A stretch of DNA of 64,000 nt. Source: a virus. Shown piece by piece: positions 18,096 through 59,922 of this stretch. The stretch is taken from the IMG/VR virus record IMGVR_UViG_3300027754_000042, one strand, 5' to 3'. A program made the position numbers and the translations under genes. Below the pieces are notes generated by a model. That model made no database searches. It had not been told where the DNA came from and saw nothing but the letters and a program-made list of their open reading frames with translations. Position 1 is the first letter of the stretch, and the number at the start of each line of letters is the position of its first letter.

Positions 18096-19154
18096 ATGAT
18101 GTTTTATTATGACGATAAAAAGAACGTCTATCGTACACAGACTGACGCAATCAAGTCAGCCAAATTTTGTCATTTCTATTACCACGACGATGTTTTCAGT
18201 AAGGTCGATTGGAAAACAGAACCTACTGAAACGCTTGAACAGATATATCGCGAACGCGCACAACAAATTCGTGACCAATATGAGTATGTGATCCTTTGCT
18301 ATTCTGGTGGGTACGATTCGACAAACATTTTGGAATCGTTCTACTACAACAATATCCACATAGATGAGATATTGCTTGTTGGAGCATTCTCACAAGATTC
18401 TAGGTATGGCACCGATGAAAATCATAACGGTGATATATACCACAATGCTTTTCCAACTCTCAGAAGCATGAATTTGCCTAATACCAAAATCACTATAGCA
18501 GATTACACTGACCATTTTAATGATCCAAATAATTTCACACTTATCAAAAAGTATGGTAACGAGTGGACAAATCATATCGGTGGATTTAAAAGCGTTCACA
18601 ATCTATTTTGGTACGACCTCAAAAAATTTGTTGGTAAAAACAATAACAAGAACACATGCTATATCATGGGTTCTGATAAACCAGGTTATGAATTTGAAGA
18701 AAAAGCTATACGCTTTAACGATCTGTCGGTAAATGATTATGGTGCAAATTACCAAGACGAAAATTTCACACGAATCAATTTCTACAATGGTACCGATGAT
18801 GTGGTTATCAAGCTTATGGTAAAACAAGGGCATGTTGTTATGAAATTGGACGACATTTTTTACAAGATGTACGAAGAGCAAGAAAAGAATGCCCATCCAT
18901 TACTCAATCGAGAGCTTGCTTATTGGAATAAAACAAAACGCATAAATGAGATTATATACAATCTCAGAGCACCGATGAAATTTGAATCAACCAAGTCGAT
19001 GTATAATACACTCAGTGCCAGAGATATGTTCATGCTAAAGAGCCAAAATAGCGAGATGTATCGGATGTTCTTAGAAGGCATGAAAAACCTATCATCGTTT
19101 AGTCATATTTACAAAAAGTATTGCTTCTGGTCACAACCATACTATCTAACATGA
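18096..19154 (+). CDS. PP-loop (adenine nucleotide alpha-hydrolase-like) protein 1
   Basis: VILCYSGGYDS motif; clear paralog of 21289-22491. Confidence 0.7.
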   Translation: MMFYYDDKKNVYRTQTDAIKSAKFCHFYYHDDVFSKVDWKTEPTETLEQIYRERAQQIRDQYEYVILCYSGGYDSTNILESFYYNNIHIDEILLVGAFSQDSRYGTDENHNGDIYHNAFPTLRSMNLPNTKITIADYTDHFNDPNNFTLIKKYGNEWTNHIGGFKSVHNLFWYDLKKFVGKNNNKNTCYIMGSDKPGYEFEEKAIRFNDLSVNDYGANYQDENFTRINFYNGTDDVVIKLMVKQGHVVMKLDDIFYKMYEEQEKNAHPLLNRELAYWNKTKRINEIIYNLRAPMKFESTKSMYNTLSARDMFMLKSQNSEMYRMFLEGMKNLSSFSHIYKKYCFWSQPYYLT

Positions 19155-19618
19155 GCTACGTTCTTGTCTTTCTTCTGTGGACTTTCGTTGTCTATTGGGC
19201 GCATCGTGCGGCCCATGTGATTCCTGTTGTGCGTAAATTCCATATGGATCATCACGCGCAGGTAACCGACCAGACAATTCAAGGGTTAAACTGGAAGAAT
19301 GCGTTTCTCTTTTTTGATACCTGGGATAGCACCATAGATCAGTGGTTGACAGAAGTGATCCCAACGATTATAATATCTTTAATCACTGGGCATTGGTGGT
19401 TGCTCATTGCGTACTACATCTGGGCTGGTTTTATTCAGGAGGCCGTCGAACATAATAAACGCATCAATCTCTATCCATTCTTGACCAGTGGCAAATGGCA
19501 TCTAATTCATCACGAATACGCGACAAAGAATTATGGCGTATTCGTGCCTATTTGGGACTTAGTTTTTGGTACATGGAAAGGACTAGATGGCAACGGAAAA
19601 CAATTGGCTCCGAAGTAA
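19151..19618 (+). CDS. Fatty acid hydroxylase / sterol desaturase family membrane enzyme
   Basis: His boxes HRAAH, HMDHH, EHN, HLIHH plus NYG...WD..FGT; hydrophobic segments; ATG at 19151 overlaps the upstream stop. Confidence 0.85.
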   Translation: MSYVLVFLLWTFVVYWAHRAAHVIPVVRKFHMDHHAQVTDQTIQGLNWKNAFLFFDTWDSTIDQWLTEVIPTIIISLITGHWWLLIAYYIWAGFIQEAVEHNKRINLYPFLTSGKWHLIHHEYATKNYGVFVPIWDLVFGTWKGLDGNGKQLAPK

Positions 19619-20387
19619 TCTATCAGAAAGATTGCTCAATAACTCAACCGATTTTGTGGTACACCTAGAGACTAAACCATATAAGGTAATGAGTTTTGAC
19701 GATGCAGCCAATTATACGGCTGACATAATAGCCACTAAATCATCGAAGGTGTTTATCGGATTCAGCGGTGGTATGGATTCCGAGTTCGTGTTCAGACGTA
19801 TGATTGACCGTGGACATAATGTAATACCTGTCATAGTTAGTACGCCAATAAACAAATACGAATCTGCTTATGCTTTTCGTGTATGCAAACAATATGGTAT
19901 TGAACCTATTGTAATTGACAAAACGCCTACCGAATTGCTTACGATATTCGTTGATGATATTTTTAAAAAACTAAGTGGGTATGGACACAACTCTGCACCA
20001 GCGCTTATTGTGGGGCGATACGCAGAAGACCACGGCGGCATTATGATTATGAGCGAACATATCATTGACGACAATGATGGTAAAATGTATGTTGGTGCTA
20101 ATGAATGGGACTTCTATAATGACGTTTTAATTCATAACGATAACACGCACTATTTCTTCACATATACGCCAGAGCTATGTTGCGCTATGGTAAAAGAAAT
20201 TGCAGATGAGACAGTTCAAGATTTCAAATCGCGCATCTATAATATACCATGGAGACCAAAATTTTCATATGATTATGGGTCGGCGTATGATCTAGCATTT
20301 GTCCGTATTAGACAGCATAGACTACACACGCCAGACCCTAATCACAATTTTGGCACCAAAGAGCAGTTTTTATCATTGTTTGATTGA
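19587..20387 (+). CDS. PP-loop protein 2
   Basis: VFIGFSGGMDSE motif. Confidence 0.65.
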   Translation: MATENNWLRSNLSERLLNNSTDFVVHLETKPYKVMSFDDAANYTADIIATKSSKVFIGFSGGMDSEFVFRRMIDRGHNVIPVIVSTPINKYESAYAFRVCKQYGIEPIVIDKTPTELLTIFVDDIFKKLSGYGHNSAPALIVGRYAEDHGGIMIMSEHIIDDNDGKMYVGANEWDFYNDVLIHNDNTHYFFTYTPELCCAMVKEIADETVQDFKSRIYNIPWRPKFSYDYGSAYDLAFVRIRQHRLHTPDPNHNFGTKEQFLSLFD

Positions 20388-21299
20388 ATCTTCGTATTTC
20401 TTGACCAATTGTTTTTGTCTTGCAATTTCGGTTCGAAGAAACTGTTCGTTGTTATTACACTCAAATACCAATTTTAATTTGGCAATAACATCGCGAACGG
20501 CATCTGACGCGCAAGCTTCATGTACTGATTTTTTAATCTCGTCAATAAATTTAACATTGGCTTTGGGTGCGTATAGAAGCAATGAAGACGCATAGTTAAA
20601 ATCTTTGATGCCTAATTCAAGCCCAGTTGGCACGTTTGGGTATTGAGAATTCCTATTGGGCAATGAGATAGCCAACAATTTTAGACCAGGCGTGTCGATA
20701 GGATTTTGAACCGAGTAGTCTGCTTCACCCATAAGAATGCTCTTGGTTATTTCTCCAGGTGTTTTGTACTGAATCATTTTGACGTTGTTAATATCGTACT
20801 GTTTACGAAAGATTGCGTCGAGAAGCTTTGGTGAAACAGCTTGAACCGTGGCACCATTAAACACTTCCTTCTTTCCCTTCATATACTTAACGAATTGGTC
20901 TAATGAATCTACCTTCAAATCAGGAGAAACCATTATAGCGTTTGGTACCAAAGCAATAAGTTCAATCGGAACAAAATCAGCCTCACGATCAATTGTAGAA
21001 TTGTATATGATTGGATTGAGTGTGAAATTGGAAATTGTACCGGCTACAATAGTGTTTGCGCCTAATTTAGCTTCGGCTAATGCTTTACCATCAGCCGCTT
21101 CGCCACCAGAACCTGGAATAGTACCTAATCTAAAATCATATTTTTCATCAAGCTTTTTGTTCAACTCGGTAATGAGTGTCGCTGTAACAAAAGCTGTTGG
21201 GTCGTTAGCAGGAAATCTTGTGTATACGTTTATGCGCTCTTCGCCACATGCGCCAAATGCTGCGAGAGAAAAGCAAATCAATAGTAGTTTACGAAGCAT
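20373..21299 (-). CDS. Bug/TctC-like periplasmic solute-binding protein, divergent
   Basis: Signal peptide; IPGSGG, DFVPI, SLDQFV, YKT..EI...ILMGEAD and YPNVPT..ELG elements of the Bug family. Confidence 0.75.
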   Translation of the reverse strand: MLRKLLLICFSLAAFGACGEERINVYTRFPANDPTAFVTATLITELNKKLDEKYDFRLGTIPGSGGEAADGKALAEAKLGANTIVAGTISNFTLNPIIYNSTIDREADFVPIELIALVPNAIMVSPDLKVDSLDQFVKYMKGKKEVFNGATVQAVSPKLLDAIFRKQYDINNVKMIQYKTPGEITKSILMGEADYSVQNPIDTPGLKLLAISLPNRNSQYPNVPTGLELGIKDFNYASSLLLYAPKANVKFIDEIKKSVHEACASDAVRDVIAKLKLVFECNNNEQFLRTEIARQKQLVKKYEDSIKQ

Positions 21300-22491
21300 G
21301 ATTTAACTCCAATTTTCCGATAAGGTAAGGTTGTGATCTTAACATTGAGTAGAATTGATATTTTTTATTTATCTTTTCAAATCGTTTTTCTTTTGATTCT
21401 CTATATTCTTTCAAAAATCCTTCAGTCGTATGAGTTCCAACTACAGTCTCATACAATTTAAATTCTGGGTTTTTTGTTGTTGGTTTAGGTCCAGCATACG
21501 TCTGCGGATTCCAATCTGGATATATCATCGAACTAAAACTTCTTTCCAGCATAATAGCTGAGGAATGAATAGGTTTTACCGAGTTATGATTTTTAAGCTC
21601 TTCTCTACTTTGAGTAAAAAATTCGTAGTATTTTCTATCAGATTCTAGTCGCCTTTTAATGATATGAGATTGCTTGATTGGAATCAAAGGCATATCTCTT
21701 GACCAAAAAAAATCTTCTGTAGTATAAGTTGCTGAAAATTCGCGTAGATTGAGCGATGCTGTTGTGACCATTGTTTGGTCAGTAAAATGAAAAAATAACG
21801 AGTTGTTTTTGATATGCAAAGCAGGTTTTTCCATACCGCGCACGATGCACATAGAGTTTTTGTCTTTTGATCTTTCATAGTTGGTTGTATAAAATAATTG
21901 CCACCATTGATTGTTTGGTCCCATAGATGATGAGATTCGTGGGTATTGATGTTTGATTCTACCATTATTTCCAATGATTGTATATTTGCCTGTTGAAAGC
22001 TGATCGTGCAGAAGATCGGATGCATCAACGATAGTGATTTTTGTTTTTGGACTTAATTCCAACACTTTCTTGAGCATTGGTAAAGCAGCAAGTTCGTACT
22101 CAAGCAAAATTTGAAATTCGTTGTCTCTCAACATATCTGCTCGGTCAAGATTTTTTGTCATTTTATGAAGATTTGCAACTTGGATTTCGTCAATGAATAT
22201 ATTGTTTTTTAGAAATGACCATAGAACTTGTGTTGAATCGCTACCACCAGAGAAAGCAAGAACCACATACTTGTACTTGTCTCGTATCTGTTGGGCTCTG
22301 ATTTTGTATAGTAGACCAATATCGAAATCTGGTTCTGCCATCCAATCGCATTTTTCAAACACATCATTATTGTAATAGTATTTAAGTTTTACATCATAAT
22401 CTTGACGAATTAGCGCATAATCAAATGCGTCTTCGCGAGTAAAAAATCGTTTGTCGTCGTATACATAAAACCCACAATGCAGATGATTCAT
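21289..22491 (-). CDS. PP-loop protein 3
   Basis: RAQQIRDKYKYVVLAFSGGSDS..VL.SFLKNNIFIDEI; paralog of 18096-19154. Confidence 0.7.
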   Translation of the reverse strand: MNHLHCGFYVYDDKRFFTREDAFDYALIRQDYDVKLKYYYNNDVFEKCDWMAEPDFDIGLLYKIRAQQIRDKYKYVVLAFSGGSDSTQVLWSFLKNNIFIDEIQVANLHKMTKNLDRADMLRDNEFQILLEYELAALPMLKKVLELSPKTKITIVDASDLLHDQLSTGKYTIIGNNGRIKHQYPRISSSMGPNNQWWQLFYTTNYERSKDKNSMCIVRGMEKPALHIKNNSLFFHFTDQTMVTTASLNLREFSATYTTEDFFWSRDMPLIPIKQSHIIKRRLESDRKYYEFFTQSREELKNHNSVKPIHSSAIMLERSFSSMIYPDWNPQTYAGPKPTTKNPEFKLYETVVGTHTTEGFLKEYRESKEKRFEKINKKYQFYSMLRSQPYLIGKLELNHAS

Positions 22492-46638: not shown

Positions 46639-47162
46639 TTATTCCGGGCAACGATCCACGTTTGAAGCAAGTGTGTAAGCCATTCAATTTTGATGTTGGC
46701 TACACAATGGAAGATGGTAGCATCCTCTCAGCCGAGAAGCTTTTCTATCTTCTCAAAGAACAGATGATTGCTAACAAAGGTGTAGGTTTGTCTGCTTGTC
46801 AGATTGGCATTATGACACGCGCATTTGTTATTGGCAACTTTACCGACCCCGATAGTGTGATTTCTGTTTTCAATCCGCGCATCGTAACAATGAATGATGA
46901 TACTGTTGTGTATGAAGAGGGTTGCATTTCATACCCTGGTTTGTTTATGAAAGTGAAGCGCCCCAAAGAGTTTGAGGTTCGTTTCTCTGGTTGGGATGGC
47001 GTTGCTGGTACCACGATGTTCAAGGGCTACACAGCCAGAGTATTTCTCCATGAGCTAGACCATCTCGATGGCATTACCTTTCAAAGTAAGGCTAGTCGTT
47101 TTCATTTGGAACAAGCTATCAATCAATTAAAGAAAATGAATAGAATAAAGAAACATGCATAG
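46635..47162 (+). CDS. def: Peptide deformylase
   Basis: GVGLSACQIG, EGCIS, HELDHLDG. Confidence 0.93.
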   Translation: MIIPGNDPRLKQVCKPFNFDVGYTMEDGSILSAEKLFYLLKEQMIANKGVGLSACQIGIMTRAFVIGNFTDPDSVISVFNPRIVTMNDDTVVYEEGCISYPGLFMKVKRPKEFEVRFSGWDGVAGTTMFKGYTARVFLHELDHLDGITFQSKASRFHLEQAINQLKKMNRIKKHA

Positions 47163-47169
47163 AAAACGC

Positions 47170-47198
47170 TTGACAAACTCTTCAAATCTGTTTATAAT
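47170..47198 (+). promoter_or_regulatory. Perfect sigma70 promoter for the C5-MTase/cmoA-like operon
   Basis: TTGACA 47170-47175, 17 bp, TATAAT 47193-47198. Confidence 0.85.
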
Positions 47199-47212
47199 GC
47201 AAATAATAGAGA

Positions 47213-48508
47213 TTGGACAAAACATTGACAAAATATATTCCATACACAGTTGACGATATCAAAAAGTCTTCAGCCCGAGAGCTATTCACCGTCGTATCCA
47301 CTTTTGCTGGTGGTGGTGGTTCATCAACTGGCTATCGCATCGCCGGCGGTAAAGTTATTGCCATGAATGAATTTGTAGAAGAAGCCATAAAAACATATTC
47401 AACAAATTTTCCAGATACCAAGATTATCCCAGGCGATATCAAAAAGCTTACTGGGCTTGATTTTCTTCGTGAAGCAAATCTCAAGCCTGGTGAACTTGAT
47501 ATCTTCGATGGGTCACCTCCTTGCTCCGCGTTCTCTGTTGCTGGTAAACGAGAGAAGCAATGGAAGGGTGCTATAAAGAAAACCGATAGCTCGTTTGAGA
47601 TTGACGAATATGGTGAGCTAGAATTCGTCGAGGGTGAGACGTTTACGAAAACAGGCATCAAAACTTATAGTGATGGTATGGTTGTTGAAGCTATTGAAGA
47701 TTTATTCCTAGAGTTCGTTCGCATCGCAAAAGATATCAAGCCTAAGGTTATCGTTGCAGAAAACGTCAAGGGTATCACAATGGGCGAAGCGCGCAAGAAG
47801 CTTGTAGAGTTTCAGAACGCATTTGAAAACATTGAACCTGGTTATGTTGTCACGCATCACGTTTTGAGCGCCGCAAATTATGGAGTTCCGCAAGCGCGTG
47901 AGAGACTGTTCTTTGTCTGTGTGCGTAGTGATGTTGCTAGTGTGATCGGTATGAACTGGATGAATGCCGAGACAATGACAAAGCCACCCGAAACAACTCC
48001 TATCATTCGTTCTGGTGGGCGTCGTCTAAGCGAGAATAGTCAACACATCTCATTGCGCGAAGCAATTGAAGATATCGAAAATGATCCTGAAGAAATCCAG
48101 ATGCTTAAGGATTATGTGATGGGTGGCTTTCAAAAAGATTGGATCACGAAGCTTCCATTTAATCCCAAGCGTCATACCAAGCCGAGCGATACTGAGTATC
48201 GGTCATGGAATCCTACAGGTTCATGTTTCAATATGATTCGCCCTTGCCCAGAACTTCCATGCCCTACTCTAACGCAGAGAGGGCAACAGCTTTCTGTGTC
48301 TGGTGTGTTTCATTACGCAGAGAATAGAAAGTTTACCATCAAAGAGTTGAAACGAATCATGAGTCTTCCAGAAGACTACATATTGTCTGGAAACTTTGAT
48401 AAGCAAGCAGAACGAATCGGGCGCATGGTTGCTCCTAAAATGATGGGTGCGCTTGCGTCTAACATCTACAATAAAATATTGAAACCCTATAAGGAAGCTA
48501 CACAATGA
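47213..48508 (+). CDS. C5-cytosine DNA methyltransferase family enzyme, predicted carboxymethyltransferase (motif X GRMV); start codon uncertain
   Basis: Motifs I FAGGGG, IV GSPPCSAFS, VI ENVKG, VIII PQARERLF, IX R.FTIKELKRIMSLPEDY, X IGRMVAP. Confidence 0.9.
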   Translation: MDKTLTKYIPYTVDDIKKSSARELFTVVSTFAGGGGSSTGYRIAGGKVIAMNEFVEEAIKTYSTNFPDTKIIPGDIKKLTGLDFLREANLKPGELDIFDGSPPCSAFSVAGKREKQWKGAIKKTDSSFEIDEYGELEFVEGETFTKTGIKTYSDGMVVEAIEDLFLEFVRIAKDIKPKVIVAENVKGITMGEARKKLVEFQNAFENIEPGYVVTHHVLSAANYGVPQARERLFFVCVRSDVASVIGMNWMNAETMTKPPETTPIIRSGGRRLSENSQHISLREAIEDIENDPEEIQMLKDYVMGGFQKDWITKLPFNPKRHTKPSDTEYRSWNPTGSCFNMIRPCPELPCPTLTQRGQQLSVSGVFHYAENRKFTIKELKRIMSLPEDYILSGNFDKQAERIGRMVAPKMMGALASNIYNKILKPYKEATQ

Positions 48509-49197
48509 CAGGTCAGTTCACGTTCGCGACACGCGAAGAAGGCTTTGATACGCACATCGACACATCCATTCGCGGCTACAGTGATCTGTGGCAAGACGTT
48601 GTGGATATCTCCCAGTACTTTGTTGAGAATGATACCAGCGTGGTCGATATTGGTTGCTCGACAGGTAAGATGTTAAAGAGTATGATTAACCAGAACACGT
48701 TTGCACCTAACGCAATTTATACAGGTCTAGAGATTGAACCTGAGTTTTGGGGACCATACGATCAGGACGAAAAGGATTTCGACAACCTCACATATCACAA
48801 GGGTGATGCTAATGGGTATTATTTCGACAACTGTTCATATGTCACGTCCATCTTCACACTTCAGTTCATGCCGTACCATGATCGTATGCATCTAATCAGT
48901 CGCGTATTCAATGGATTGAACCCTGGTGGTGCTTTTGTCTTCGCGGAGAAGACGATGCCTGAGAATGTACGAATCCATGAAATTCGCACCTTTACCTATT
49001 ATGATTACAAGCGCCGCACGTTTACCACCGACGATATCATGGACAAGGAGCATCAGCTCCGTCATATGACCAAACCAAACACCCGTGGCGAGCTAATCAA
49101 GGTCTGTCTAGACGCCGGCTTTCAAGCGGTTGACACCTTCTGGCAGAACCACGCCTTTACAGGGTTCATTGCGTTGAAGGGAACGACACAAAAGTAA
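48505..49197 (+). CDS. cmoA: Carboxy-S-adenosyl-L-methionine synthase, CmoA-like
   Basis: FTF, FD.HI..SI.GY, DIGCSTG, FTLQF, GLNPGGA...EK, AGF....FWQ...F.GFIALK, colinear with E. coli CmoA as recalled; ATGA overlap with the MTase gene. Confidence 0.85.
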   Translation: MTGQFTFATREEGFDTHIDTSIRGYSDLWQDVVDISQYFVENDTSVVDIGCSTGKMLKSMINQNTFAPNAIYTGLEIEPEFWGPYDQDEKDFDNLTYHKGDANGYYFDNCSYVTSIFTLQFMPYHDRMHLISRVFNGLNPGGAFVFAEKTMPENVRIHEIRTFTYYDYKRRTFTTDDIMDKEHQLRHMTKPNTRGELIKVCLDAGFQAVDTFWQNHAFTGFIALKGTTQK

Positions 49198-49262
49198 CAT
49201 AAAATGTTTCAAAAATAATTGAAAAAACACCAAAATACCTGAAAATAATTGGCAAACAATTT

Positions 49263-49301
49263 CAATGGCTTAGCGGAGATGATCCCTAAGCCATTGTTTT
49301 T
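49263..49301 (+). terminator. Hairpin with T-tract closing the MTase-cmoA operon
   Basis: caatggcttag ... ctaagccattg (11 bp perfect inverted repeat) followed by ttttt. Confidence 0.7.
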
Positions 49302-49317
49302 GCTTGTTTTTCTAGCC

Positions 49318-57159: not shown

Positions 57160-58101
57160 ATGCGTGAAGAATTTCTCTGGGTAGAAAAGTATCGGCCGCA
57201 TAAGATTGCCGATTGCATTCTACCTGATGACCTGAAGCAAACATTCCAACAATTCGTAAACGACGGCAGCATTCCTAATCTGTTGCTTGCTGGCACTGCT
57301 GGTGTCGGTAAGACAACGGTCGCTCGTGCTATGCTTGACGAGATCAATGCTGACTATTTAATTATCAATGGGTCAATGAATGGTAACATTGACACACTGC
57401 GAAATGAAATTCGCAACTATGCAGGTACCGTATCATTTGGTGGAGGTCGTAAGTATGTTATCTTGGATGAGGCGGATTACCTCAACGCTAGTTCCACACA
57501 GCCCGCACTCAGAAACTTCATGGAGGAGTTCTCAAGTAACTGTGGATTTATTCTCACCTGCAATTTCAAGAACCGAATTATCCAACCACTACATTCTCGG
57601 TGCGCTGTTGTAGACTTTAAGATCCAGAAGAAGCAACTTGGTGGTCTTGCTGTTGAGTTTATGAAGCGAGCCATTTGGATCCTTGAGGCTGAGAATGTTG
57701 AGTATGATAAAGGTGCAGTCGCAGAGGTAATCAAGAAGCATCTGCCCGATTGGCGGCGTGTACTCAATGAGTTCCAGAGGTATGCTGCGCGTGGTAAGAT
57801 TGACACTGGTATCCTTGCGTCGGTCGATAATACCAATATCAGCGAACTTGTCAAGTGTTTGAAGAACCGCGAGTTTGAGAACATGCGAAAGTGGATTGGC
57901 ACTAACTCTAGCGCGGACGTGAATACTCTATTCCGTTCTCTGTATGATACCGCTTATGATATCCTAGATCAGAATTCTGTACCGCAGTTGATCCTCATTC
58001 TTGCGGACTATCAGTACAAAGCTGCTTTTGTTGTTGACCAAGAAATCAACCTTGCTGCATGTATGACGCAGATTATGATTGATTGTGAGTTCAAGTCATA
58101 G
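57160..58101 (+). CDS. gp44: Clamp loader large subunit gp44
   Basis: LWVEKYRP, GTAGVGKTT, ILDEAD, LHSRC. Confidence 0.96.
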   Translation: MREEFLWVEKYRPHKIADCILPDDLKQTFQQFVNDGSIPNLLLAGTAGVGKTTVARAMLDEINADYLIINGSMNGNIDTLRNEIRNYAGTVSFGGGRKYVILDEADYLNASSTQPALRNFMEEFSSNCGFILTCNFKNRIIQPLHSRCAVVDFKIQKKQLGGLAVEFMKRAIWILEAENVEYDKGAVAEVIKKHLPDWRRVLNEFQRYAARGKIDTGILASVDNTNISELVKCLKNREFENMRKWIGTNSSADVNTLFRSLYDTAYDILDQNSVPQLILILADYQYKAAFVVDQEINLAACMTQIMIDCEFKS

Positions 58102-58111
58102 GACAAATACG

Positions 58112-58669
58112 ATGGCAAAATACTTAGATAGATCAGCGATAGAAGACCTTGACTCTTATAGACAAGAGATATTTGCGATTAGAGAAAGAGCATATGCAAA
58201 GCATGGTATTGATATATTGGATAACGATACTCTAAGCTCCGTATCAATCTACAATTTGGTTTCTCAATATGATCCAGATTACAATATCAACTTTGCTAGA
58301 AATGGTGAAGATGCGATTTCTAATCGAATTGAAATTGAACAGAAATGTAGCAGAGTCGAAAACGATAAGAAACTGGCTTCATTTATGTTTCATGCTATGG
58401 GTAACCTTATCTATGATCGGTATATCTTTGTTGCGCGCCACAAAGACAATCTAGACCTACTCAGGATCTATGATATAAGTCAGAAAAAAAATCTGAAAAT
58501 CATTCATAAGCATTTGACGGCAGAACGAGATGCTTGGTTAGAACGAGGCAGAAAAGATCAAAGCAAAATGAAAAGGGATGTCGTTTTGCTGTCTGAGAAA
58601 ATGATGAAAGAACAACTGACAAGCTTATCTAAAATCAAGATATATACATGTGAAGTTATTAGAGGTTGA
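58112..58669 (+). CDS. Hypothetical protein, possible restriction-endonuclease-like
   Basis: AT-rich; GEDA....IEIEQK pattern; coupled to the downstream methyltransferase. Confidence 0.45.
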   Translation: MAKYLDRSAIEDLDSYRQEIFAIRERAYAKHGIDILDNDTLSSVSIYNLVSQYDPDYNINFARNGEDAISNRIEIEQKCSRVENDKKLASFMFHAMGNLIYDRYIFVARHKDNLDLLRIYDISQKKNLKIIHKHLTAERDAWLERGRKDQSKMKRDVVLLSEKMMKEQLTSLSKIKIYTCEVIRG

Positions 58670-59922
58670 CAATGGCAAATCTGATCTACACAGAAAATGA
58701 ATTTCTATCGCTGTTCAGTTTTAACAAGACAGTCAGTTTTGAAGACTTTAGCAACCAAATTTCTGTGTTGAATGGTAGCGATACCTCAGGAAATTTCGTC
58801 GTCAGGAGCGACCTTGATACATTCATCGAAAGAGTTGCAAAAAGCGATGACAGAAAAGATAGACTGAACTTATACAAAGAACAAATGTATAAGATGCTCG
58901 TTCTAGAACCAGAGGTAGCTCTTACAGAATGGTTTCGTAAGACTGCTAAAATCGCAGAACCGATTGAGCATTATTTTCAAATACCACCCGCTCAGATTTT
59001 AAATGGTGACACATTTGCTGGCCGTACATACAGCAAATATGGTCGTATCTGCAAAAACATTAATTTCGAAAAATTTTTCAGCACACGCAAACTTTACAGT
59101 AACGATTTCGAGTACACTTTTGGTTTACTAAAAGTGATGTTTGAACAATTTAAAATACGCAACAGTTTAGCCAGCCCCGCTTTCTTTGACCATATATGCA
59201 AAATTGAAAACAGTAACTATGGACAATTCTGGACCGATTTTATGATTGGTTGTAATAGGGCTAGCATTTTTAATCCAGCAACATACAAGGGCATCTTAGA
59301 CGAAATTCTTCCTGGTAAAATTTTGTTTGCTCCAGTTATGGGTTGGAATAGCTATCAGTTCGCATTTTATTCGAGCGGATTCGAGAAGTTTATCGCAACT
59401 GATGTTATACCTGAGGTTGTTGAAAACGGAAAAACATTGCACAAAGTCTGGCAAGATTTTTCAGACAAGAGTTTTTTTGGAGTAGCGGATAAGTCTGTCG
59501 ATCTATATTGTTGCCCCTCAGAAAAACTGAAGTCGATTGGATTCGAAGATACATATCGAGAGAAGGTAGATGCGGTTCTGTTTAGCCCGCCATATTATGA
59601 CCTTGAAATTTATGATAGCGAAGATCAAAGTTTTACCAATTATCCTAACTATGAAGAATGGCTAGAAAAATACTGGGAAGCTACCGTCCTTACAGCAAAG
59701 GAAGTGATGAAGCCAGATGCCAATTTTGCGTTTGTTATCTCTAACTATAGAAATAAAGCCAAACAAGAAGTGAATATCAGCGAAGATATGATGAGAGTGG
59801 TAAGCAAGCACCTGAATCTTAAAGCCAGATATAAGATTCAGTGGTCAGCTATTGGAACTGGACGGCAAGCAAAAAAAACTAGAGGCGGAAATTTTGAAGA
59901 CCTTTGGGTTTTCACAAAATAG
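58666..59922 (+). CDS. DNA amino-methyltransferase (N6-A or N4-C type)
   Basis: Motif I-like FAPVMGW before motif IV FSPPYYDLEIY; start may be ATG 58672. Confidence 0.78.
   Translation: MTMANLIYTENEFLSLFSFNKTVSFEDFSNQISVLNGSDTSGNFVVRSDLDTFIERVAKSDDRKDRLNLYKEQMYKMLVLEPEVALTEWFRKTAKIAEPIEHYFQIPPAQILNGDTFAGRTYSKYGRICKNINFEKFFSTRKLYSNDFEYTFGLLKVMFEQFKIRNSLASPAFFDHICKIENSNYGQFWTDFMIGCNRASIFNPATYKGILDEILPGKILFAPVMGWNSYQFAFYSSGFEKFIATDVIPEVVENGKTLHKVWQDFSDKSFFGVADKSVDLYCCPSEKLKSIGFEDTYREKVDAVLFSPPYYDLEIYDSEDQSFTNYPNYEEWLEKYWEATVLTAKEVMKPDANFAFVISNYRNKAKQEVNISEDMMRVVSKHLNLKARYKIQWSAIGTGRQAKKTRGGNFEDLWVFTK

Follow-up and report, generated by a model that had tools for sequence, protein, structure and literature searches.

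A predicted CmoX-CmoA DNA carboxymethylation cassette, apparently without a ligase, at an exchangeable site in a freshwater T4-like phage

A two-gene unit at positions 47170-49301 of IMG/VR virus record IMGVR_UViG_3300027754_000042, from a freshwater T4-like phage, is very probably, judging by the homology of its products, a CmoX-CmoA DNA carboxymethylation cassette that places 5-carboxymethylcytosine (5cxmC) in phage DNA. The 64,000 nucleotides (nt) of this record that were analysed are referred to below as the window. Gene 1 (cmoX) is by sequence a homologue of DNA cytosine C5-carboxymethyltransferases (CmoX), and gene 2 (cmoA) is a phage CmoA, a predicted homologue of carboxy-S-adenosylmethionine (Cx-SAM) synthase. 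The CmoA-CmoX-CmoY system to which such genes belong was described in December 2025 (Yang et al., Nat Commun 2025; PMC12783734), and the window unit is thus a new example of a published system and not a discovery. A first-pass annotation of the window had read the same chemistry, a Cx-SAM synthase paired with an Arg-type C5 transferase, and had cautioned that natural phage enzymes of this kind might already have been reported. The chemistry is supported by homology to the enzymes SpCmoX and SpCmoA of Synechococcus phage S-B43, and the caution was justified. What is of interest locally is that a ligase appears to be lacking and that a close relative shows a cassette swap.

Homology of the two genes

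In phage S-B43, 5cxmC is made and then joined to glycine by the AsnB-like ligase CmoY. SpCmoA is a Cx-SAM synthase in assay, and wild-type SpCmoX uses Cx-SAM only, the R350N mutant being inactive. In the crystal structure of SpCmoX, Arg350 contacts the carboxymethyl group of Cx-SAM and takes the place of M.HhaI Asn304 (PMC12783734).

SpCmoX (PDB 8YF3) is the best solved relative of gene 1 (E 7.6e-103; 46% identity over 416 columns), which also matches the PF00145 (E 5.3e-51) and TIGR00675 dcm models. The C5-methyltransferase motifs named in the first-pass annotation (PC, ENV and QxRxR) were all located, within a series comprised of FAGGGG (residues 31-36), SPPC (101-104), ENV (183-185), QARER (227-231) and IGRMVAP. 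The SPPC motif (S101-P102-P103-C104) aligns to S95-C98 of SpCmoX, with the catalytic Cys104 (codon at 47522-47524, plus strand) on SpCmoX Cys98. Within motif X, the Arg that had been placed at about residue 404 is Arg404, encoded by cgc at 48422-48424 (plus strand). This residue aligns to SpCmoX Arg350 and is predicted to bind the carboxylate of Cx-SAM; in the same search it is matched as well to the Asn in IGNAV, motif X of M.HaeIII. The proposal that this Arg stands at the motif X Asn position is therefore borne out, the connection to M.MpeI running through SpCmoX, M.HhaI Asn304 and M.HaeIII. Gene 1 carries both features by which CmoX has been defined operationally, SPPC and an Arg at the Arg350 position (PMC12783734), and it has cmoA next to it, the two genes overlapping at ATGA.

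Two cultured phages and 24 IMG/VR loci supplied the 21 distinct homologues in which conservation was assessed. SPPC is invariant in all 20 distinct homologues with an open reading frame (ORF) covering the motif and GRMV in all 21, and FAGGGG, ENV and QxRxR are kept wherever the ORF spans them. Motifs I, IV (SPPC), VI (ENV), VIII (QxRxR) and X (GRMV) are thus all conserved among these homologues. Both genes of the window are under purifying selection; against near-identical environmental copies, which differ by few substitutions, the ratio of nonsynonymous to synonymous substitution rates (dN/dS) is about 0.1 for each.

Gene 2 is 48% identical to the assayed SpCmoA over 231 columns (E 2e-77). 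With E. coli CmoA (4GEK) it aligns end-to-end (E 1e-19, residues 3-226) at 27.5% identity, and the two have in common the blocks GYS, DxGCSxG, FTLQF, GLxPGG, EK and DxKR. Its top NCBIfam match is TIGR00740, at 91.1 bits against a cut-off of 193.3 bits. The colinearity with CmoA noticed earlier thus extends over the full length of the protein. As had also been stated, the window holds no CmoB homologue (best tblastn E 0.72) and no tRNA gene.

The pairing of the two genes recurs. In 21 of the 24 related IMG/VR loci cmoA follows cmoX, either as the next gene or after nothing more than an intervening cmoY or second cmoX, and the three loci with no visible cmoA end at a contig edge. The arrangements seen are cmoX-cmoY-cmoA, cmoY-cmoX-cmoA, a tandem cmoX pair followed by cmoA, and cmoX-cmoA alone. 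Two tandem, divergent cmoX paralogues precede cmoA in five loci of marine or other origin (L017, L018, L019, L020 and L022; e.g. L020:3980-6245). Since SPPC and GRMV are present in each paralogue, there may be two target specificities.

Promoter, gene coupling and hairpin

The unit opens with a sigma-70-type early promoter at 47170-47198 (plus strand), in which TTGACA and TATAAT are separated by 17 nt. It matches the consensus at 12 of 12 positions, in agreement with the first-pass description of a perfect promoter. Five perfect sites of this type occur in the window against 0.11 expected from shuffled sequence, so these are taken to be real early promoters. On the plus strand, cmoX (47213-48508) has a TTG start and encodes 431 amino acids (aa); some public gene calls use an alternative TTG at 47225, giving 427 aa. 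The cmoA gene (48505-49197, plus strand; 230 aa) begins within the cmoX stop, and the ATGA overlap at 48505-48508 is the coupling that had been noted before.

Downstream lies a hairpin with a T-rich tail at 49263-49312 (stem-loop 49263-49296, plus strand), likely an intrinsic terminator. The 121-nt stretch that contains it folds at -29.6 kcal/mol (z -4.29) and a T-run follows the stem-loop; a simple terminator scan did not pick up the hairpin at 49263-49296. The stem is kept in the relative G006 by means of a compensatory G-C to A-T change. Because the hairpin is common to G006, which has neither gene, it belongs to the conserved backbone and stands outside the variable two-gene unit. The closing hairpin of the earlier description is therefore present, and it is a feature of the flank, not of the unit.

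Cassette exchange in a close relative

G006 is a 154.7-kb record, estimated to be 93% complete, with 91-97% nucleotide identity to the window on both flanks of the unit. No CmoX, PF00145, PF00733, TET or C5-methyltransferase homologue was found in it. Homology between the window and G006 fades in the last codons of the peptide deformylase gene and resumes right at the cmoA stop codon, and the promoter at 47170-47198 is within the segment that G006 lacks. The corresponding slot (L065:883-3109, or G006:C1:52882-55108, equivalent to window 47114-49206) encodes a 470-aa protein with a TET-associated glycosyltransferase (TAGT) domain (PF20691, E 2.3e-43) and, beside it, a 292-aa class I methyltransferase-like protein. 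Both proteins are unrelated to CmoX and CmoA. The promoter, cmoX and cmoA of the window are a swappable cassette, and, given the TAGT-domain gene in the same position, the slot appears to hold alternative DNA-modification modules.

TET/JBP homologues were found neither in the window nor in the linked loci. Elsewhere, two cmoX-cmoA phages encode a Tet_JBP dioxygenase of 467-469 aa (L068:805-2214 in G007 and L069:1261-2664 in G002), and in G002 a TAGT-like gene (G002:C1:115788-116402) lies about 2 kb from it. The Arg-type CmoX is the sole C5-methyltransferase homologue in both of these phages. The substrate of their Tet_JBP protein could be 5cxmC, thymine, or 5-methylcytosine (5mC) of another source.

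Search for an amide ligase

The window encodes no homologue of SpCmoY (best E 0.95). A CmoY-family hidden Markov model, run against the window and about 155 kb of linked contigs from relatives, matched only the two positive controls. The linked contigs are public ones, connected to the window and among themselves by proteins of identical sequence. Placed on the coordinates of the window, they reach from about -56 kb to +99 kb and cover about nine tenths of a genome estimated at about 170 kb. No Asn_synthase gene is present anywhere in their Pfam tables, and all that separates gp43 from uvsX in the linked relatives is a small ORF of 71 aa, joined in some of them by another of 194 aa. PF00733 is likewise absent from relatives G001, which overlaps only the left part of the window, and G005, and also from the complete genome of phage RN05-S and the 78%-complete G002, both of which have cmoX and cmoA and were compared with S-B43 as a positive control, which was matched. 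As to membership in the three-gene CmoA-CmoX-CmoY system (5gcxmC), CmoY is thus the component that the window and linked contigs do not supply. The first-pass annotation had offered a handle for hypermodification as one role of the modified base; that option is unsupported, because no CmoY-type ligase was found across this range.

In G003, 75% identical and syntenic with the window from deformylase to gp43, the gene next after gp43 is a true cmoY (47% identity to SpCmoY). It is about 18 kb downstream of cmoX, at a site that corresponds to just past the window end. The cmoY genes of G003 (L028:1498-2307) and G007 (L060:1498-2307) are 47-51% identical to SpCmoY and lie about 17-18 kb downstream of cmoX-cmoA, and so the ligase need not adjoin the writer.

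RN05-S (L002, PV261924.1) is a cultured Synechococcus phage with a complete genome of 206.5 kb, in which cmoA and cmoX are adjacent and there is no Asn_synthase-family gene anywhere. It is an isolate suited to a direct look for free 5cxmC.

As no CmoY-type ligase was found in the lineage of the window phage, its 5cxmC may stay un-amidated, and on balance we lean slightly towards a lineage that stops at free, un-amidated 5cxmC. A broader proposal, that the lineage is without any amide ligase, that free anionic 5cxmC is the final base in virion DNA, and that the cassette is one of at least two interchangeable ones at a fixed post-deformylase slot, appears evenly poised. We know of no native phage in which free 5cxmC has been shown to be the end modification.

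It is possible, if rather doubtful, that 5cxmC is instead an intermediate, which would be turned into an amide, or into some other hypermodified base, by an unrecognised ligase. Candidates for that role are three PP-loop (SGGxDS) proteins encoded at 18096-19154, 19587-20387 and 21289-22491 (the last on the minus strand), and a gene elsewhere in the genome. The three genes lie on opposite strands, and two of the proteins are paralogous (26% identity). Further tailoring of this kind would fit with S-B43, whose virions have the glycine amide only and no free 5cxmC, and with the existence of several ligase clusters with differing active sites (PMC12783734). It would fit as well with the distance of about 17 kb that can separate cmoY from cmoX, with a weak PF00733 match to the G007 homologue of the PP-loop protein pp2 (E 0.003), and with the position of pp2 in the Atlas, close to viral clusters in which a minority of the labels are QueC or Asn_synthase. 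However, the PP-loop proteins resemble CmoY at the PP-loop only (hhalign probability 2-43%), they have no PHROG match, and their Pfam matches are all sub-threshold. G007 has cmoY and pp2 together, in addition to cmoX, and G004 has cmoY and a pp3-like gene. In the complete genome of RN05-S, which carries cmoA-cmoX, cmoY is missing, and so are all the PP-loop proteins looked for. G006 keeps pp2 (87% identity) without cmoX, but this counts for little, as the cassette swap seems to be recent. The lack of a CmoY-family match in about 155 kb of linked relatives also argues against such tailoring. As substitutes for CmoY the PP-loop proteins were rejected, since only the PP-loop is shared, PHROG matches are lacking and their co-occurrence tracks neither cmoX nor cmoY; they are kept solely as candidates under the intermediate hypothesis. 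Also near the PP-loop genes are a fatty-acid-hydroxylase-like gene, TctC-like genes and two 2OG-Fe(II) oxygenases.

Proposed function and alternatives

The early sigma-70-type promoter would give a single transcript with both genes. CmoA would then convert S-adenosylmethionine (SAM) and host prephenate to Cx-SAM, and CmoX would flip target cytosines out of double-stranded phage DNA. Following attack of Cys104 on C6, the carboxymethyl group of Cx-SAM would be moved to C5, with Arg404 holding the carboxylate of the cofactor, to yield 5cxmC. These activities are assigned to both proteins by analogy with the assayed S-B43 enzymes. Most likely, 5cxmC would shield the phage genome from host restriction enzymes, as suggested by the protection against HhaI that SpCmoX activity gives to DNA (PMC12783734).

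A phage-boosted supply of prephenate was also considered and rejected. In relative G001, a gene some 19 kb upstream that matches PF00793 ('DAHP synthase') is a KDO-8-phosphate synthase (NF003543, 360 bits, above the cut-off), and so there is no link to the shikimate pathway.

Several points weigh against a CmoX-CmoA cassette that ends in free 5cxmC. Gene 2 falls under the TIGR00740 equivalog cut-off; the assayed SpCmoA falls under it too (115.6 bits), so that the cut-off excludes the phage clade as a whole and is no argument against function. The specificity region of gene 1 (between motifs VIII and IX) shows insertions and reduced identity when set against that of SpCmoX, and the GC target of SpCmoX is therefore not transferable to gene 1. 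For the ligase-free part in particular, the linked contigs are drawn from several samples and cover about nine tenths of the genome of about 170 kb, three PP-loop proteins are present at 18-22 kb of the window, and a ligase may lie at a distance, given the position of cmoY in G003 and G007.

It is improbable that the phage CmoA serves mainly to drain host SAM, as a counter-defence like that of phage SAM lyases, with DNA carboxymethylation secondary. The question was raised as an open one together with the finding that the kcat of SpCmoA is tenfold that of E. coli CmoA (PMC12783734). Nothing in the present data points to such a role, the tight coupling to an Arg-type transferase accounts for cmoA without it, and it is in any case compatible with DNA carboxymethylation by the cassette. 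Least probable is that gene 1 is an ordinary SAM-dependent 5mC methyltransferase and gene 2 a mere neighbour that raises cmo5U in host tRNA: the generic PF00145 and TIGR00675 dcm matches and the classical role of CmoA in tRNA modification speak for it, but motif X has Arg for Asn as in SpCmoX, which takes Cx-SAM only, the genes are translationally coupled, cmoA follows cmoX in every relative with a long enough contig, and the window is without cmoB or a tRNA gene.

Genomic surroundings

The source stretch recurs in lake metagenomes from more than ten studies. The CmoX-CmoA unit sits within the replication/recombination block of the T4-like phage, with gp47, gp46 and peptide deformylase as upstream neighbours. 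Downstream are small ORFs, a 765-aa protein matching phrog_459, an AAA_5 ATPase, gp45, gp44, gp62, RegA, Hsp20, lysis genes and gp43.

A two-gene insert at 58079-59922 parts gp44 from gp62. The 418-aa product of one gene gives a partial match to a DNA methyltransferase (phrog_498, over residues 295-381), and a weak one to N6_N4_Mtase. Near-identical relatives hold a 215-aa MUG113-domain gene at this site instead.

Additional genes can be seen outside the window in close relatives (L087, L090, L093 and L074). These encode KDO-8-P synthase, the curli secretion proteins CsgF and CsgG, a FecR-like protein, a CHASE2-guanylate cyclase, a carbamoyltransferase, ThyX, AdoMet decarboxylase and radical SAM proteins, an auxiliary gene set that is unusual for a T4-like phage.

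Comparison with known systems

The present findings extend the CmoX-CmoA system described in 2025, for which a list of 5,615 candidate CmoX sequences, from IMG/VR and elsewhere, was given (PMC12783734), to a recurrent freshwater T4-like phage, and leave the known chemistry unchanged. What is new locally is the cmoX-cmoA order, the absence of a detected CmoY, and the swappable cassette of promoter and two genes. The apparently ligase-free arrangement is a natural one in which to ask whether virions hold free 5cxmC, and how that base affects restriction, transcription and sequencing chemistry. The precise interchange of this cassette and one with a TAGT-domain gene is an example of modular exchange of DNA-modification genes.

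Similarity to the S-B43 system is found in the Arg-type C5 transferase (46% identity) with SPPC, ENV, QxRxR and GRMV, in CmoA (48%), and in the coupling of the two genes within a single unit of a T4-like phage without cmoB. The gene order is cmoA-cmoY-cmoX in S-B43 and cmoX-cmoA in the window, and the ligase of S-B43 has no counterpart among the sequences searched. The window CmoX is 59 residues longer than SpCmoX and carries insertions both past motif IV and within the specificity region. The S-B43 enzymes have been assayed, whereas the window pair is known as genes from freshwater lake metagenomes.

With the phage TET/TAGT modules for cytosine hypermodification the cassette has its position in common, a TAGT-domain gene occupying the same slot in G006. 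The proteins are unrelated, and G006 itself encodes neither a TET nor a C5-methyltransferase homologue. The CmoA/CmoB pathway of E. coli to tRNA cmo5U (b1870/b1871) is similar in that gene 2 aligns with CmoA over its full length. There the partner is CmoB, whereas in the window, which has no CmoB, the predicted acceptor enzyme is a DNA cytosine transferase.

The engineered M.MpeI N374K, in which a basic residue in place of the motif X Asn lets a C5-methyltransferase use Cx-SAM, was the parallel drawn in the first-pass annotation, and the same one is drawn in PMC12783734. In both M.MpeI N374K and the window CmoX a basic residue replaces the motif X Asn. In M.MpeI it is an engineered Lys, whereas in the window CmoX it is a natural Arg, with Cx-SAM predicted to come from the phage's own cmoA.

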